From Escherichia coli (lineage in GTDB: Bacteria; Pseudomonadota; Gammaproteobacteria; Enterobacterales; Enterobacteriaceae), in assembly GCF_024502345.1 (NCBI RefSeq), contig NZ_JALDNN010000001.1: a DNA stretch of 64,000 bases; one strand, 5' to 3'. A model generated the notes under the pieces. The model was not told the DNA's origin, ran no database searches, and saw nothing but the letters and a program-made list of their open reading frames with translations. Shown in pieces: positions 51,896 to 56,621 of this stretch (its first letter is position 1; every line of letters starts with the position of its first letter). The translations under genes were made by a program, and so were the position numbers.

Positions 51896-52035
51896 CTTAG
51901 TTCCTTGAATTCGTTATTTTTTCGTAAGCGGAATGCCTACGGTCTTGCTTCCAGTTTAGTGGCGAGGGTGGACGGATGACAACACCATAACTGGCAGGGT
52001 ATGCTTATTTCCGCATTTTCCGATGAGGGATAAAG

Positions 52036-52395
52036 ATGAGCAAACCACCTCTTTTCTTTATTGTTATCATTGGCTTAATTGTCGTCGCCGCATCGTTTCG
52101 TTTTATGCAACAGCGACGGGAAAAAGCTGATAATGATATGGCTCCGCTCCAGCAAAAGCTGGTGGTGGTGAGCAACAAGCGGGAAAAACCGATTAACGAT
52201 CGCCGTTCGCGCCAGCAGGAAGTGACTCCGGCAGGCACCAGTATGCGCTATGAGGCAAGCTTCAAACCGCAAAGCGGAGGAATGGAGCAGACGTTTCGCC
52301 TCGACGCCCAGCAGTACCACGCCCTGACAGTGGGCGATAAAGGTACGCTGAGCTATAAAGGAACGCGCTTTGTTAGCTTTGTTGGCGAACAATAA
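52036..52395 (+). CDS. yhhM: Uncharacterised protein YhhM, 119 aa
   Basis: ORF translation MSKPPLFFIVIIGLIVVAASFRFMQQRREKADNDMAPLQQKLVVVSNKREK... Confidence 0.88.
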   Translation: MSKPPLFFIVIIGLIVVAASFRFMQQRREKADNDMAPLQQKLVVVSNKREKPINDRRSRQQEVTPAGTSMRYEASFKPQSGGMEQTFRLDAQQYHALTVGDKGTLSYKGTRFVSFVGEQ

Positions 52396-52397
52396 GG

Positions 52398-52667
52398 TTA
52401 TTTTTTAACTTTAAATTTCTTCTGCCAGACCAGCAGTTCAAACACGCCGAAAAGGAAAATCCGCACCTTTTCGGCGGTGGTCATCTGCGGGCCATCTTTC
52501 GGTAAAGTGGATTTCAATAGCGCCAGCTGCATACCATGCATCAGCACGGTAAAAATCAGCGCCACGTTAACGAAAATATTCAGCGGGCGCGGGAAGGGAT
52601 GCACCAGATTGAGGATTAAAAATCCCCAAACGCAGAGCATTAACAAACGACCAATATTAATCAGCAT
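52398..52667 (-). CDS. yhhL: Small membrane protein YhhL (DUF1145), 89 aa
   Basis: ORF 52398..52790 trimmed to the ATG giving MLINIGRLLMLCVWGFLILNLVHPF...; start overlaps the rsmD 3' end. Confidence 0.8.
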   Translation of the reverse strand: MLINIGRLLMLCVWGFLILNLVHPFPRPLNIFVNVALIFTVLMHGMQLALLKSTLPKDGPQMTTAEKVRIFLFGVFELLVWQKKFKVKK

Positions 52668-53253
52668 CACTTTCTCCTTGTGCTTCGCGTTGATACAGCC
52701 GATAAGCCACCTGACCCGCCACTTTTTCCCGATGTAATGACCAGTTTGCCGGAACAGTGGGCAGACCGTTTTCGACTTCGCTTTCGACATAAATCAGGGC
52801 TTCGTCAGCCAGCCAGCCGTTATCTTCCAGTAAATTTATCGTCTCTTCTAACAAGCCACGGCGGAACGGTGGATCGACAAACACGATATTATGCGGTGTG
52901 CCTTTTTGCGCCAGGAATGACATTGCGTTGCTGTTCACCACGCGTGCATTGCCTGCTTTTAGTGTCGCCAGATTCTTAATTAACTGCTGAGAAACCGCGC
53001 GATCCATCTCAATCAACGTTGCCCCCGCAGCATAGCGCGACAACGCTTCCAGCCCCAGCGCGCCGCTTCCGGCGAAGCAATCCAGACATTGGGCGTCAAC
53101 AATGACCGGAGCCAGCCAGTTAAACAACGTTTCGCGTACGCGGTCGGTGGTGGGGCGCAGACCTGGGCTATCAGGAACCGGGAGTTTACGGCCTCGCCAC
53201 TGCCCGCCAATAATGCGGATTTGGCCGCTGCCGGAATGATTCGGTTTTTTCAT
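52657..53253 (-). CDS. rsmD: 16S rRNA m2G966 methyltransferase RsmD (YhhF), 198 aa
   Basis: ORF translation MKKPNHSGSGQIRIIGGQWRGRKLPVPDSPGLRPTTDRVRETLFNWL... (DPPF motif). Confidence 0.95.
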   Translation of the reverse strand: MKKPNHSGSGQIRIIGGQWRGRKLPVPDSPGLRPTTDRVRETLFNWLAPVIVDAQCLDCFAGSGALGLEALSRYAAGATLIEMDRAVSQQLIKNLATLKAGNARVVNSNAMSFLAQKGTPHNIVFVDPPFRRGLLEETINLLEDNGWLADEALIYVESEVENGLPTVPANWSLHREKVAGQVAYRLYQREAQGESDAD

Positions 53254-53402
53254 GATAAATTGCTCAATCCGCCAGATAACACATACTTGCAGGCGGTGAT
53301 GTGAATTAAGTTAAGTGATAGACTATTTCATCATTTTTTTAGCTGCTATGTACATAGCGTTAACGCTGTGCCATGAAGCAACAGCGAGGAGTGTAGTCGC
53401 AA

Positions 53403-54899
53403 ATGGCGAAAGAAAAAAAACGTGGCTTTTTTTCCTGGCTGGGCTTTGGTCAAAAAGAGCAGACCCCGGAAAAAGAGACAGAAGTTCAGAATGAACAACC
53501 GGTTGTAGAAGAAATCGTTCAGGCGCAAGAGCCTGTGAAGGCTTCGGAACAAGCCGTTGAAGAGCAGCCGCAGGCGCATACTGAAGCCGAGGCGGAAACT
53601 TTTGCTGCCGACGTTGTGGAAGTCACTGAACAGGTAGCTGAAAGTGAAAAAGCGCAGCCTGAAGCGGAAGTCGTTGCACAGCCGGAACCGGTCGTAGAAG
53701 AAACGCCGGAGCCAGTGGCTATCGAACGTGAAGAACTGCCGTTGCCGGAAGACGTCAACGCCGAAGAGGTTTCGCCAGAAGAGTGGCAGGCTGAAGCGGA
53801 AACCGTAGAGATTGTCGAAGCGGCGGAAGAAGAAGCGGCTAAAGAAGAAATCACCGACGAAGAGCTGGAAACACAGGCGCTGGCTGCCGAAGCGGCAGAA
53901 GAGGCGGTGATGGTGGTTCCTCCGGCAGAAGAAGAGCAGCCGGTGGAAGAAATCGCTCAGGAGCAGGAAAAACCGACCAAAGAAGGTTTTTTCGCGCGCC
54001 TGAAACGCAGCCTGTTAAAAACCAAAGAAAATCTCGGTTCCGGATTTATCAGCCTGTTCCGCGGTAAAAAAATCGACGATGATCTGTTTGAAGAGCTGGA
54101 AGAGCAGCTGTTGATCGCCGATGTGGGCGTGGAAACCACACGTAAAATAATCACCAATCTGACGGAAGGCGCATCCCGCAAGCAGCTTCGTGATGCCGAG
54201 GCGCTCTATGGCCTGCTGAAAGAAGAGATGGGCGAGATTCTGGCGAAAGTCGATGAGCCGCTGAATGTTGAAGGCAAAGCGCCGTTTGTGATCCTGATGG
54301 TGGGCGTCAACGGTGTGGGTAAAACCACGACGATTGGTAAGCTGGCACGTCAGTTTGAGCAGCAGGGTAAATCGGTGATGCTGGCGGCGGGCGATACTTT
54401 CCGTGCAGCAGCGGTTGAACAGCTTCAGGTCTGGGGTCAGCGCAACAATATTCCGGTGATTGCCCAGCATACCGGTGCGGATTCCGCCTCTGTTATCTTC
54501 GACGCCATTCAGGCAGCTAAAGCGCGTAATATCGACGTCCTGATTGCCGATACCGCCGGACGTCTGCAGAACAAATCGCATCTGATGGAAGAGTTGAAGA
54601 AAATCGTCCGCGTGATGAAGAAACTCGACGTTGAAGCGCCGCATGAAGTTATGCTGACTATTGATGCCAGCACCGGGCAGAACGCGGTAAGCCAGGCCAA
54701 ACTGTTCCACGAAGCTGTTGGTTTAACCGGCATCACGCTAACGAAACTGGACGGCACGGCGAAAGGCGGGGTAATTTTCTCGGTGGCTGACCAGTTTGGT
54801 ATCCCTATCCGCTACATTGGTGTCGGCGAACGTATTGAGGATTTGCGTCCGTTTAAGGCGGACGACTTTATAGAGGCACTTTTTGCCCGAGAGGATTAA
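53403..54899 (+). CDS. ftsY: Signal recognition particle receptor FtsY, 498 aa
   Basis: ORF with acidic low-complexity N-terminal domain and C-terminal SRP GTPase domain (GVNGVGKTT, DTAGR). Confidence 0.97.
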   Translation: MAKEKKRGFFSWLGFGQKEQTPEKETEVQNEQPVVEEIVQAQEPVKASEQAVEEQPQAHTEAEAETFAADVVEVTEQVAESEKAQPEAEVVAQPEPVVEETPEPVAIEREELPLPEDVNAEEVSPEEWQAEAETVEIVEAAEEEAAKEEITDEELETQALAAEAAEEAVMVVPPAEEEQPVEEIAQEQEKPTKEGFFARLKRSLLKTKENLGSGFISLFRGKKIDDDLFEELEEQLLIADVGVETTRKIITNLTEGASRKQLRDAEALYGLLKEEMGEILAKVDEPLNVEGKAPFVILMVGVNGVGKTTTIGKLARQFEQQGKSVMLAAGDTFRAAAVEQLQVWGQRNNIPVIAQHTGADSASVIFDAIQAAKARNIDVLIADTAGRLQNKSHLMEELKKIVRVMKKLDVEAPHEVMLTIDASTGQNAVSQAKLFHEAVGLTGITLTKLDGTAKGGVIFSVADQFGIPIRYIGVGERIEDLRPFKADDFIEALFARED

Positions 54900-54901
54900 C
54901 A

Positions 54902-55570
54902 ATGATTCGCTTTGAACATGTCAGCAAGGCTTATCTCGGTGGGAGACAGGCGCTGCAGGGCGTTACGTTCCATATGCAGCCGGGTGAGATGGCGTTTCTG
55001 ACCGGTCATTCCGGCGCAGGGAAAAGTACCCTCCTGAAGCTGATCTGTGGGATTGAGCGGCCCAGCGCCGGGAAAATCTGGTTTAGCGGCCATGACATCA
55101 CGCGTCTGAAAAACCGTGAAGTTCCGTTTCTGCGCCGCCAGATTGGCATGATTTTCCAGGATCACCATCTACTGATGGACCGTACTGTCTACGATAACGT
55201 GGCGATCCCGCTGATTATCGCTGGTGCCAGCGGTGACGATATTCGTCGCCGGGTGTCGGCGGCACTGGATAAAGTCGGGCTACTGGACAAAGCGAAGAAC
55301 TTCCCTATTCAGCTTTCCGGCGGTGAACAACAGCGTGTTGGCATTGCCCGCGCGGTGGTGAATAAGCCCGCGGTACTGCTGGCGGACGAACCGACCGGTA
55401 ACCTGGACGACGCGTTGTCGGAAGGGATTCTACGTCTGTTTGAAGAGTTTAACCGCGTTGGGGTAACCGTATTGATGGCAACGCACGACATCAACCTGAT
55501 TTCACGGCGTTCCTATCGCATGCTCACCCTGAGCGATGGTCACTTGCATGGAGGCGTGGGCCATGAATAA
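54902..55570 (+). CDS. ftsE: Cell-division ABC ATPase FtsE, 222 aa
   Basis: ORF translation [48 protein letters not shown]... Confidence 0.97.
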
Positions 55571-56621
55571 GCGCGATGCAATCAATCATATTCGGCAGTT
55601 TGGTGGGCGTCTGGATCGCTTCCGTAAATCGGTCGGCGGCTCAGGCGACGGCGGTCGTAACGCACCGAAACGCGCGAAATCCTCGCCAAAACCGGTAAAT
55701 CGCAAAACCAACGTTTTCAACGAACAGGTGCGCTATGCCTTCCACGGCGCATTGCAGGATCTGAAAAGCAAACCGTTCGCCACGTTTTTAACGGTGATGG
55801 TTATCGCCATCTCCCTGACGCTGCCCAGCGTCTGTTATATGGTGTACAAAAACGTTAATCAGGCGGCGACGCAGTATTATCCGTCACCGCAAATCACTGT
55901 TTACTTGCAAAAAACGCTGGACGATGACGCCGCTGCGGGCGTGGTGGCACAGTTGCAGGCCGAGCAAGGCGTGGAGAAAGTGAACTATCTTTCTCGTGAA
56001 GACGCACTGGGCGAGTTCCGTAACTGGTCTGGTTTTGGTGGTGCGCTGGATATGCTGGAAGAAAACCCGCTTCCGGCAGTGGCGGTGGTGATCCCGAAAC
56101 TCGATTTTCAGGGGACGGAATCACTCAATACGCTGCGTGATCGTATCACGCAGATTAACGGCATTGACGAAGTGCGGATGGATGACAGCTGGTTTGCCCG
56201 TCTGGCGGCGTTGACCGGGCTGGTCGGGCGCGTTTCGGCGATGATCGGCGTGTTGATGGTGGCGGCAGTGTTCCTCGTCATCGGCAACAGCGTACGTCTG
56301 AGCATCTTTGCTCGCCGTGACTCCATCAACGTGCAGAAACTGATTGGTGCGACGGATGGTTTCATCCTTCGCCCGTTCCTGTATGGTGGCGCACTGCTGG
56401 GATTTTCTGGCGCATTGTTGTCATTAATTTTGTCAGAAATTCTGGTGCTGCGATTGTCATCGGCGGTTGCGGAAGTGGCACAGGTTTTCGGAACGAAGTT
56501 TGATATCAATGGTTTATCGTTCGATGAATGCCTGCTATTGCTGCTGGTATGCTCGATGATTGGCTGGGTGGCAGCGTGGCTTGCCACGGTACAACATTTA
56601 CGCCACTTTACGCCTGAATAA
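55563..56621 (+). CDS. ftsX: Cell-division ABC transporter permease-like protein FtsX, 352 aa
   Basis: ORF 55536..56621 trimmed to ATG at 55563 ([15 protein letters not shown]...), overlapping the ftsE stop. Confidence 0.93.

Follow-up and report, generated by a model that had tools for sequence, protein, structure and literature searches.

In a 64,000-nucleotide stretch of Escherichia coli DNA (the window, referring to the whole stretch analysed), one long reading frame opens with about 200 residues rich in a few residue types, Glu foremost, and further open reading frames (ORFs) run opposite to it. We asked to which gene this acidic segment belongs, whether its sequence is built from repeats, what role such a sequence might have in the protein that carries it, and whether the opposite strand encodes anything. 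A first-pass annotation, made from the letters alone, had described the segment as a low-complexity N-terminal domain of FtsY, and we used its individual claims as starting points.

The acidic region is the A domain of FtsY

The plus-strand frame of 498 codons and a stop encodes FtsY, the SRP receptor, and its residues 1-197 are the already known A domain (Table 1). The DNA is 99.5% identical to the annotated E. coli ftsY gene, with coinciding RefSeq start and stop, and over its whole length the protein matches two full-length E. coli FtsY chains, 2yhs and 5gad (E = 0). The surrounding gene order is rsmD / ftsY-ftsE-ftsX / rpoH, where ftsE starts 2 nt past the ftsY stop and is followed by ftsX and rpoH, as in the ftsYEX operon context. 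The gene was held by 5425 of the 5426 complete genomes searched. The FtsY equivalog model of NCBIfam (TIGR00064) scored 386.2 bits, above its cut-off of 260.7, and the sister models for Ffh (233.9 bits, cut-off 473.2) and FlhF (85.5 bits, cut-off 174.15) both failed. In Pfam, an SRP54_N helical bundle precedes a C-terminal SRP54-type GTPase, in which we located the GTPase motifs GVNGVGKTT (301-309), DTFR (331-334), DTAGR (383-387) and TKLD (447-450); GxNGxGKTT, DTFR, DTAGR and TKLD were invariant or almost so in 50 homologues. From the sequence identity of its NG part to that of K-12, this FtsY would be expected to form a GTP-dependent heterodimer with Ffh/SRP, with reciprocal GTPase activation. 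Nothing in the analysis contradicted the identification as FtsY.

The range first marked as acidic, 53430..54000, corresponds to residues 10-199 and is in frame with the ftsY ORF. Residues 1-197 had no match in Pfam or NCBIfam. The solved NG+1 and NG chains 2qy9 (the NG+1 chain), 6cqp and 2xxa align from query residue 197, and most solved E. coli FtsY chains begin at residue 195-225. Entries 2yhs and 5gad were deposited with the full-length sequence, yet the A domain is absent from every structural model (PMC5094494). The A domain comprises residues 1-197 here instead of 1-196 in K-12 numbering because of an extra Gln (Q158) in the present allele.

Table 1. Features of the ftsY locus, in coordinates of the window
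Feature	Coordinates	Strand	Evidence or status
ftsY CDS	53403..54899	+	ORF; Pfam SRP54_N and SRP54; TIGR00064; RefSeq annotation
A domain, residues 1-197	53403..53993	+	Composition; no Pfam/NCBIfam match; pLDDT 38-63; starts of NG chains
N-terminal lipid-binding motif alpha-A1, residues 1-14, MAKEKKRGFFSWLG, basic/aromatic	53403..53444	+	Alleles; homologues; PMC5094494, PMC5533587
Acidic low-complexity core, residues 19-194	53457..53984	+	segmasker; E 28%; charge -47; AlphaFold; function from PMC5094494, PMC5533587, PMC4602035
Amphipathic membrane-targeting sequence alpha-N1 at the A/N junction, residues 196-208, FFARLKRSLLKTK	53988..54026	+	Alleles; alignment; AlphaFold; PMC5094494, PMC5533587
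N domain (SRP54_N), residues 211-276	54033..54230	+	Pfam PF02881, E 4e-15
G domain (SRP54-type GTPase), residues 294-494	54282..54884	+	Pfam PF00448, E 4e-80
Tandem repeat, 15-nt unit GAAGCGGCGAAAGAA, 2.2 copies	53817..53849	+	Tandem Repeats Finder
Two 8-nt direct repeats CAGAAGAG (53776-53783, 53896-53903)	53776..53903	+	Bracket the 120-nt deletion of PSJ-07
Antisense ORF, 77 aa; codon-aligned frame, stop-free 53349..54014 (222 codons)	53346..53579	-	Not a gene
Antisense ORF, 111 aa, rich in S/A/T; stop-free 53522..53956 (145 codons)	53519..53854	-	Not a gene
Longest antisense ORF of ftsY, 231 aa, opposite the NG domain	54015..54710	-	Not a gene

Compositional bias without a repeat array

Five residue types, Glu (28.4%), Ala (14.7%), Val (11.7%), Gln (8.6%) and Pro (8.1%), account for 71.5% of residues 1-197, which bears out the dominance of E, A, Q, P and V described in the first-pass annotation. 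The net charge of this part is -47, against -4 for residues 198-498, and the Shannon entropy in 40-residue windows is 2.76-3.15 bits in the A domain as compared with 3.4-3.9 bits in the rest of FtsY. There are 55 Glu among the 190 residues translated from 53430..54000, compared with the 4.8% Glu of the window's 53 long ORFs (binomial P about 1e-27), and none of the other long ORFs of the window exceeds 11% Glu in any 190-residue stretch. Low-complexity filtering had been proposed as the check on the description, and SEG agreed with it. With default settings, residues 58-76, 84-106 and 130-189 were masked; coverage was about 52% in residues 1-197 and 4% in residues 198-498. With a 25-residue window, segmasker masked exactly residues 19-194 and left the NG part untouched. 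Masking residues 19-194 as low complexity avoids spurious similarity hits.

The same annotation spoke of loosely repeating units. The motifs it named do exist, but each occurs only once or twice in the A domain (EEQPQ once, AEAE twice, EEEA once) and they show no periodicity. Tandem Repeats Finder reported as the sole tandem repeat in the region the short one listed in Table 1. We therefore rejected a periodic repeat array or tandem-repeat domain; the acidic region is a compositional bias.

Conserved ends and a core predicted to be disordered

The two ends of the A domain differ from what lies between them. The N-terminal MAKEKKRGFFSWLG was invariant in six E. coli alleles; part of its coding DNA consists of an A8 run (53413-53420) and a T7 run (53427-53433). 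At the other end, FFARLKRSLLKTK and EGFFARLKRSLLKTK were both present and invariant in the six alleles, including the Phe that defines NG+1, and GFFxRLK was conserved in the consensus of a 50-sequence alignment. AlphaFold2, run with this 50-sequence alignment, predicted a helix at residues 196-203. Residues 1-190 lacked secondary structure in the model and had pLDDT values of 38-63, as opposed to 83-98 in residues 191-498, so that the core is predicted to be intrinsically disordered, pLDDT being a proxy for disorder only.

Length and sequence variation in the A domain

The six E. coli alleles differed at six amino-acid-variable columns in the 197 residues of the A domain, which also contained all three indels (1, 3 and 40 residues), whereas the 301 residues of the NG part had two variable columns and no indel. 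The largest indel is an in-frame deletion of 120 nt in the wild isolate E. coli PSJ-07, which removes FtsY residues 126-165, and other alleles have indels of 3 nt and 9 nt, both within the interval spanned by the direct repeats that bracket it. In a sample of 40 genomes taken at even intervals from the ranked list of 5425, there were 26 in the 498-residue class, 11 of K-12 length, two shorter by 9 nt and one shorter by 120 nt. The 120-nt deletion allele, found in this one of the 40 evenly spaced records, ranked last of the 5425. Every length difference among the sampled E. coli alleles lies within the acidic core, an observation slightly beyond the record but unsurprising.

In comparisons with relatives, too, constraint on the A-domain sequence is relaxed although the composition persists. 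In the closest 50%-cluster representative, 79 of 184 A-domain positions are identical with 51 gap positions, as compared with 264 of 301 and no gaps in the NG part. Across 137 FtsY relatives, N-terminal extensions of 0 to 944 residues occur, and in 122 of the relatives the extension is at least 50 residues long. A basic/aromatic head like residues 1-14 is present in 76 of these 122 extensions and an acidic body in 67, with net charges down to -226; the combination of the two is the commonest type (53 of 122).

Role of the acidic core

Membrane-targeting is the conventional label for the entire A domain, and the first-pass annotation had used it for the acidic stretch. The region is indeed the known A domain, but the acidic core is not its lipid-binding part. 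According to NMR on the K-12 protein, residues 38-161 are disordered, are unaffected by lipid nanodiscs and lose their signal with SecYEG, and lipid is bound by Gly8-Lys18 together with the membrane-targeting (junction) sequence (PMC5094494). The isolated A domain and full-length FtsY bind SecYEG with the same Kd of 0.18 uM, and the A domain-SecYEG interaction is electrostatic and weakened by salt (PMC5094494). SecY cross-links to FtsY residues 143-176, and the A domain is non-essential (PMC4602035). Binding to anionic lipid through the ends and to the SecY C4/C5 loops through the core is thus published for K-12 FtsY (PMC5094494, PMC4602035, PMC2064314). As for the membrane, a 'Dynamic mode' of binding was reported for the N-terminal lipid-binding motif, the acidic A domain inhibits the Stable mode, and stepwise truncation of the A domain alters the binding mode (PMC5533587). 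NG+1, from which the A domain is gone except for one Phe, supports growth (PMC5533587; PMC2064314), and the A domain stabilises the FtsY-SecY complex, NG+1 being less active in vitro (PMC2064314). Published views of the core's contribution differ, from a tether promoting translocon binding (PMC5094494) to a mainly inhibitory element (PMC5533587).

We consider it highly probable that the A domain consists of two lipid-binding ends and a disordered, acidic, SecY-binding tether that restrains stable membrane binding. Three elements lie in series: the basic/aromatic residues 1-14, the acidic disordered core of residues 19-194 (~175 residues), and an amphipathic helix at ~196-208. Both flanking helices would bind anionic phospholipid, and the core would bind no lipid but SecY, electrostatically, and would serve as a flexible leash holding the NG GTPase core near the translocon. 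Its negative charge may also prevent stable membrane binding by free FtsY until SRP arrives. The published behaviour of the K-12 protein (lipid and SecY binding, auto-inhibition, dispensability) probably holds for the present allele, judging from a sequence that differs only by E122 and the extra Q158. The function of the core would then come from charge and flexibility, not from a fold, and its sequence could therefore drift, with short stretches added or removed through slippage between short direct repeats. Given that growth persists in the core's absence and that a wild isolate lacks residues 126-165, which include most of the SecY cross-link peptide, the core could contribute only in a quantitative way.

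The dispensability could also be taken to mean that the acidic core lacks any function in itself, being a spacer and nearly neutral. The growth supported by NG+1, the poor conservation of the core, the 15 of 137 relatives with an extension below 50 residues, and the confinement of all natural indels to the A domain, including the 40-residue deletion of PSJ-07, are in line with such a spacer. However, acidic composition recurs in independent lineages without sequence likeness, more than half of the longer extensions being acidic-bodied (67 of 122), and the salt-sensitive affinity of the isolated A domain for SecYEG matches that of the full-length protein (PMC5094494). The lower in vitro activity of NG+1 (PMC2064314) and the shift of membrane-binding mode on truncation in steps (PMC5533587) likewise speak against it, and we regard a mere spacer as unlikely.

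Far less probable still is that the region acts mainly through its mRNA or translation, with a purine-rich, GAA-dominated mRNA or the nascent acidic chain pacing translation for co-translational membrane attachment through the N-terminal helix. The sense strand is 64% purine and uses 43 GAA against 13 GAG codons, but GAA is the preferred Glu codon in E. coli. The order of synthesis would fit, as translation begins with the lipid-binding motif and continues with about 180 residues that need not fold, and co-translational membrane association of FtsY is said to have been described by Bercovich-Kinori and Bibi (J Cell Sci 2015). Against this, there was neither an RNA family match nor a structure signal: an Rfam scan of 52000..56000 in E-value mode identified no RNA element, the only match being a chance-level archaeal snoRNA opposite the NG domain (15.3 bits, gathering threshold 40, E 0.81). 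Moreover, the purified A domain is active as a protein, both in SecYEG binding (PMC5094494) and in modulating the membrane-binding mode (PMC5533587). Pacing of translation would supplement the charged tether more than compete with it.

A bolder extension of the tether model is that its length polymorphism (498, 497, 495 and 458 residues), arising by slippage between short repeats such as CAGAAGAG and GCNGCNGAA, is a selectable 'tuning knob' and not neutral noise, for which we see only a very slim chance. If it were true, receptor reach and auto-inhibition, and hence the balance of speed and fidelity in membrane-protein targeting, would be set per E. coli lineage, and the loss of residues 126-165, with most of the mapped SecY cross-link peptide, would represent an extreme setting.

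Open reading frames on the opposite strand

Long antisense ORFs had been attributed to the acidic region. They are present there, although modest at 77 and 111 residues, but the longest (231 residues) lies opposite the NG domain and not the A domain. A single TTA codon (Leu205, 54015-54017) divides this longest ORF from the open run of the A domain. TTA, CTA and TCA codons are all absent from the A domain, and consequently the codon-aligned antisense frame stays open. In a codon-shuffle test done frame by frame, this frame was open in 100% of shuffles, saturating at full length, and it is also open over 235 codons opposite the NG domain, so that openness is not peculiar to the A domain. For the frame of the 111-residue ORF, the 145-codon run compares with a shuffle expectation of 104 +/- 36 (P = 0.145). 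The A-domain antisense ORFs are passive by-products of composition, that is, of T-poor DNA without TTA, CTA or TCA codons. A promoter and terminator scan of 53100..55100 returned one promoter-like and two terminator-like sites, none inside the A-domain DNA; these counts are not above those of shuffled sequences, and thus nothing suggests an internal or antisense transcription unit.

We accordingly give almost no credence to a real overlapping gene in any of the three ORFs, even though the frames are open in all six E. coli alleles compared: composition accounts for the openness, none of the 77-, 111- and 231-residue products has a Pfam match, their exact sequences are missing from a collection of 15 billion proteins, five RefSeq annotations show no antisense feature, promoter-like sites are not in excess, a natural ftsY allele removes 40 codons of the 111-residue ORF, and the products would be S/A/T/C-rich low-complexity mirrors of the sense sequence. 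We rejected the antisense ORFs as genes on the negative Pfam, protein-collection and RefSeq results, and genome annotation should not call them. The earlier caution against reading a separate gene into this region was well placed, the acidic region being in frame within the 498-residue ftsY ORF and the antisense ORFs bearing no sign of a gene.

Comparison with known systems

The acidic A domain of FtsY is already known. As a disordered tether that works by charge within a targeting machine it is a textbook case, and this picture is unchanged here. The K-12 A domain (residues 1-196), studied by de Leeuw, Koch, Bibi, Sinning, Shan, Wintermeyer and colleagues, is the same protein. The K-12-lineage allele is identical except at two positions, an Ala in K-12 being replaced by E122 here and Q158 being added, for a length of 498 instead of 497 residues. 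K-12 shares the gene order, the alpha-A1 motif and the membrane-targeting sequence, and its NG part is identical.

The acidic FtsY extensions of other bacteria resemble that of E. coli in architecture and charge pattern, beginning for example with MGFFSFLFGKKK... or MLGWFKKKF... and continuing with an E/D-rich body, but they vary from about 50 to 944 residues and are unalignable outside both ends. Some are true tandem repeats, such as that of the homologue P0003 with a 12-residue unit repeated many times, unlike the E. coli A domain, which has no such array.

In eukaryotes, the N-terminal region of SR-alpha consists of an SRX domain and a charged linker and is anchored via SR-beta. Its SRX domain is folded and binds SR-beta, an integral-membrane GTPase and a separate protein, unlike the bacterial A domain, and the two are not homologous, residues 1-197 matching no Pfam or NCBIfam model. 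The role is the same, and established: the SR-alpha region brings the NG GTPase of the receptor to the membrane at the translocon (PMC2064314).

What FtsY homologues have in place of the A domain varies widely, from nothing at all to an acidic tail of 944 residues or a heme A synthase-like (COX15/CtaA) membrane domain fused to the protein, which goes slightly beyond the record but is unsurprising; a literature search on CtaA-FtsY fusions in a limited collection found nothing relevant. These N-terminal replacements and the allele length differences would suit hypothesis-driven follow-up by FtsY researchers. In FtsY proteins with an integral-membrane N terminus, including the COX15/CtaA-FtsY fusions, the N-terminal element keeps the NG core at the membrane as in E. 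coli, and an FxRLK motif like that of the membrane-targeting sequence is retained directly before the N domain. The transmembrane-anchored FtsY proteins have a permanent polytopic membrane domain and a P/E-rich linker, where E. coli FtsY has a reversible peripheral helix pair and an acidic tether.

Identity of the acidic stretch

The stretch at 53430..54000, which the first-pass annotation had described as the acidic, low-complexity N terminus of FtsY, lies inside and in frame with a 498-codon ORF (53403..54899, + strand). The FtsY equivalog model TIGR00064 (NCBIfam) scored 386 bits, above its cut-off of 260.7; the paralogue models for Ffh and FlhF (NCBIfam) both stayed under their own cut-offs. 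Pfam gave no family match within residues 1-200, and residues 1-197 searched alone matched no NCBIfam model. At the DNA level, identity to annotated E. coli ftsY is 99.5%, the gene order is the standard arrangement (zntA, yhhN, yhhM, yhhL, rsmD (-), then ftsY-ftsE-ftsX and rpoH (+)), and the protein matches the deposited full-length E. coli FtsY chains 2yhs and 5gad over its entire length. These results identify the window as E. coli and the gene as ftsY. Other solved E. coli FtsY chains mostly start at residue 195-225. All testable sequence-level defining features of FtsY and of an E. coli-type A domain were found, and the region is the already known E. coli FtsY A domain itself. The gene is present as a single chromosomal copy in 5425 of 5426 complete E. 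coli genomes.

Spacing in the operon is tight: within 54897-54904, ftsE starts 2 nt past the ftsY stop codon. The annotated ftsX start at ~55563 (RefSeq coordinates transferred from L001, an annotated E. coli comparison locus) overlaps the ftsE end (55570) by 8 nt, pointing to translational coupling; a mechanical ORF list placed the ftsX start earlier, at 55536.

AlphaFold2 with a 50-sequence alignment predicted residues 1-190 essentially without secondary structure (block-mean pLDDT 38-63) and residues 191-498 with pLDDT 83-98, the first helix being 196-203. The codons of the N-terminal lipid-binding motif KEKKRGFFSW contain an A8 run (53413-53420; GAA AAA AAA C, formally an A_AAA_AAA slippery heptamer) and, 7 nt after it, a T7 run (53427-53433), both unchanged across the six E. 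coli alleles compared.

Features of ftsY, its alleles and the antisense ORFs
Feature	Position (nt)	Strand	Residues	Remarks
Basic/aromatic head	53403-53444	+	1-14	MAKEKKRGFFSWLG
Acidic core	53457-53984	+	19-194	
Amphipathic junction sequence	53988-54026	+	196-208	FFARLKRSLLKTK
SRP54_N		+	211-276	Pfam
SRP54-type GTPase domain		+	294-494	Pfam
Tandem repeat	53817..53849			15-nt unit, 2.2 copies; sole repeat reported by Tandem Repeats Finder
Indel 1			126-165 interval	3 nt
Indel 2				9 nt, in imperfect duplication GCTGCCGAA / GCGGCAGAA
Indel 3	53776-53783 and 53896-53903 (ends)			120-nt in-frame deletion, strain PSJ-07; ends are 8-nt direct repeats CAGAAGAG
Antisense ORF, 77 aa	53346..53579	-		Opposite A domain; stop-free run 222 codons, 53349..54014, codon-aligned frame
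Antisense ORF, 111 aa	53519..53854	-		Opposite A domain; stop-free run 145 codons, 53522..53956
Antisense ORF, 231 aa	54015..54710	-		Opposite NG domain; stop-free run 235 codons, 54018..54722, codon-aligned frame

Compositional bias of the A domain

The claim that E, A, Q, P and V dominate the first 200 or so residues was borne out: residues 1-197 contain 28.4% E, 14.7% A, 11.7% V, 8.6% Q and 8.1% P, together 71.5%. The net charge of the A domain is -47, compared with -4 for the remaining 301 residues, and its local entropy is 2.8-3.2 bits, compared with 3.4-3.9 elsewhere in FtsY. Among the 190 residues translated from 53430..54000, 55 are E (binomial P ~1e-27 at the window average of 4.8% E), and no other long ORF of the 64-kb window exceeds 11% E over any 190-residue stretch. 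Low-complexity filtering, the check proposed in the first-pass annotation, agreed: SEG masked 58-76, 84-106 and 130-189 by default (~52% of the A domain versus 4% of the NG part), and exactly 19-194 and nothing else with a 25-residue window. The "loosely repeating units" were present but hardly repeat (EEQPQ once, AEAE twice, EEEA once). With these counts and the single short repeat in the table, we rejected a repeat array or tandem-repeat domain; the pattern is compositional bias.

Variation among E. coli alleles

The protein differs from the K-12-lineage FtsY only by E122 (A in K-12) and an extra Q158 (498 versus 497 aa). In an alignment of six E. coli ftsY alleles, all three indels fell between residues 126 and 165, and six columns were amino-acid-variable in the 197-residue A domain, compared with two in the 301-residue NG part. 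Across 40 records sampled evenly down a ranking of 5425, the A-domain DNA spanned 597 nt in 26, 594 in 11, 588 in two and 477 in one, so the window's length class is the common one. That such slippage-driven length polymorphism adaptively tunes the tether seems very improbable.

The ftsY of the wild isolate PSJ-07 (NZ_AP027619.1, locus L005 1001-2377) encodes 458 aa and lacks residues 126-165, the deletion sitting exactly between the two CAGAAGAG repeats (53776-53903). It takes out the core's only transiently helical segment (152-161) and most of residues 143-176, the peptide published as cross-linking to SecY. This allele, one of the 40 sampled records and last in the ranking of 5425, may be genuine or may reflect an assembly error.

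Function of the acidic core

The published experiments were done on K-12 FtsY, two positions different from the present protein. By NMR, the A domain is disordered, empty lipid nanodiscs leave residues 38-161 unaffected, and the central and C-terminal A-domain signal is lost only with SecYEG present (PMC5094494). The term "membrane-targeting A-domain" is fair for the whole domain; membrane binding is absent from the acidic low-complexity stretch. SecYEG binding has a Kd of 0.18 uM for the isolated A domain and full-length FtsY alike and weakens with salt; the authors proposed an electrostatic and disordered tether on which the NG domain can seek out ribosome-bound SRP (PMC5094494). Cross-linking identified residues 143-176 as a SecY contact (PMC4602035), and the A domain stabilises a carbonate-resistant FtsY-SecY complex (PMC2064314). 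Single-molecule experiments distinguished a "Dynamic" membrane-binding mode via the N-terminal motif from a "Stable" mode via the junction helix, the latter inhibited by the acidic remainder of the A domain (PMC5533587). The acidic stretch is most likely a flexible, charged leash linking FtsY to the translocon and a brake that keeps it from locking onto the membrane too early; published work differs on which of the two roles weighs more. We hold the identification as the FtsY A domain, together with this general mechanism, with high confidence.

A functionless spacer would fit the poor conservation of the core, the natural 40-residue deletion and the dispensability of the core, as growth is supported by NG+1, in which a single Phe is all that remains of the A domain (PMC5533587). 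However, NG+1 is less active in vitro (PMC2064314), the acidic composition recurs across lineages and an affinity for SecYEG has been measured, and we consider a mere spacer unlikely. A translation-level role, either of the nascent chain or of the message with its many purines and GAA codons, is very unlikely and would supplement, not replace, the protein-level function.

Antisense open reading frames

The A domain had been said to produce long antisense ORFs. Two of them are indeed opposite it, but open antisense frames are not peculiar to the acidic domain because the gene's longest antisense ORF faces the NG domain. Sense TTA, CTA and TCA are stops on the antisense strand. Since the A-domain DNA (only 14.9% T) has none of these codons, no codon shuffle closes the codon-aligned antisense frame. 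The density of antisense-stop trinucleotides is 15 per kb for the A-domain DNA, compared with 23 for the NG part and 38 for the whole window. The second-frame run of 145 codons agrees with the codon-shuffle expectation (104 +/- 36, P = 0.145), and the 235-codon run opposite the NG domain is at the upper edge of its own (165 +/- 38, P = 0.048); a single TTA codon (Leu205) divides the latter from the A-domain run in the same codon-aligned frame. The 111-aa ORF loses 40 codons in one natural ftsY allele. The three ORFs have no Pfam match, are absent from a 15-billion-protein collection by exact look-up and are unannotated in five RefSeq genomes, and their region has no excess of promoter-like sites and no Rfam match. 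As none of these tests supports a real antisense gene, we consider this reading extremely improbable, in agreement with the earlier warning against a separate gene.

N-terminal extensions of FtsY relatives

When 1.84 billion cluster representatives were searched in full with HMMER, 29,370 relatives were found, and 137 of the best 150 have a near-complete NG core, preceded by extensions of 0 to 944 residues (median 167). Among the 122 extensions of at least 50 residues in these 137, the E. coli layout of a basic/aromatic head and acidic body occurs in 53, a transmembrane-like head in 28 and a lysine-rich body in six; the remaining 35 belong to other classes. The closest representative among the best 150, P0002, has an 88% identical NG core (BLAST). 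The sequence of the acidic core is free to vary, whereas its charge and both flanking motifs persist. P0017 (564 aa) carries a D-2-hydroxyacid dehydrogenase domain (PF02826 and PF00389) ahead of the NG core and may be a fused gene call rather than a real fusion.

In P0014, P0016, P0029 and ~25 other representatives, a heme A synthase-like COX15/CtaA polytopic membrane domain replaces the A domain, followed by a P/E-rich linker and an MTS-like FxRLK motif (638-674 aa; NG core 60-66% identical to E. coli). The only source of this locus is a 3.1-kb metagenome contig (L006 268-2292), and a gene-calling error is unlikely because three divergent members have the same layout. A literature search found nothing relevant on an FtsY-CtaA fusion, which is a natural counterpart of experiments anchoring the NG domain by a foreign membrane segment. 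The A domains of two other relatives are true tandem arrays, of a 12-residue unit repeated more than 10 times in P0003 (552 aa) and of EAEARAREEAEAR in P0125, in contrast with the purely compositional bias of the E. coli A domain.
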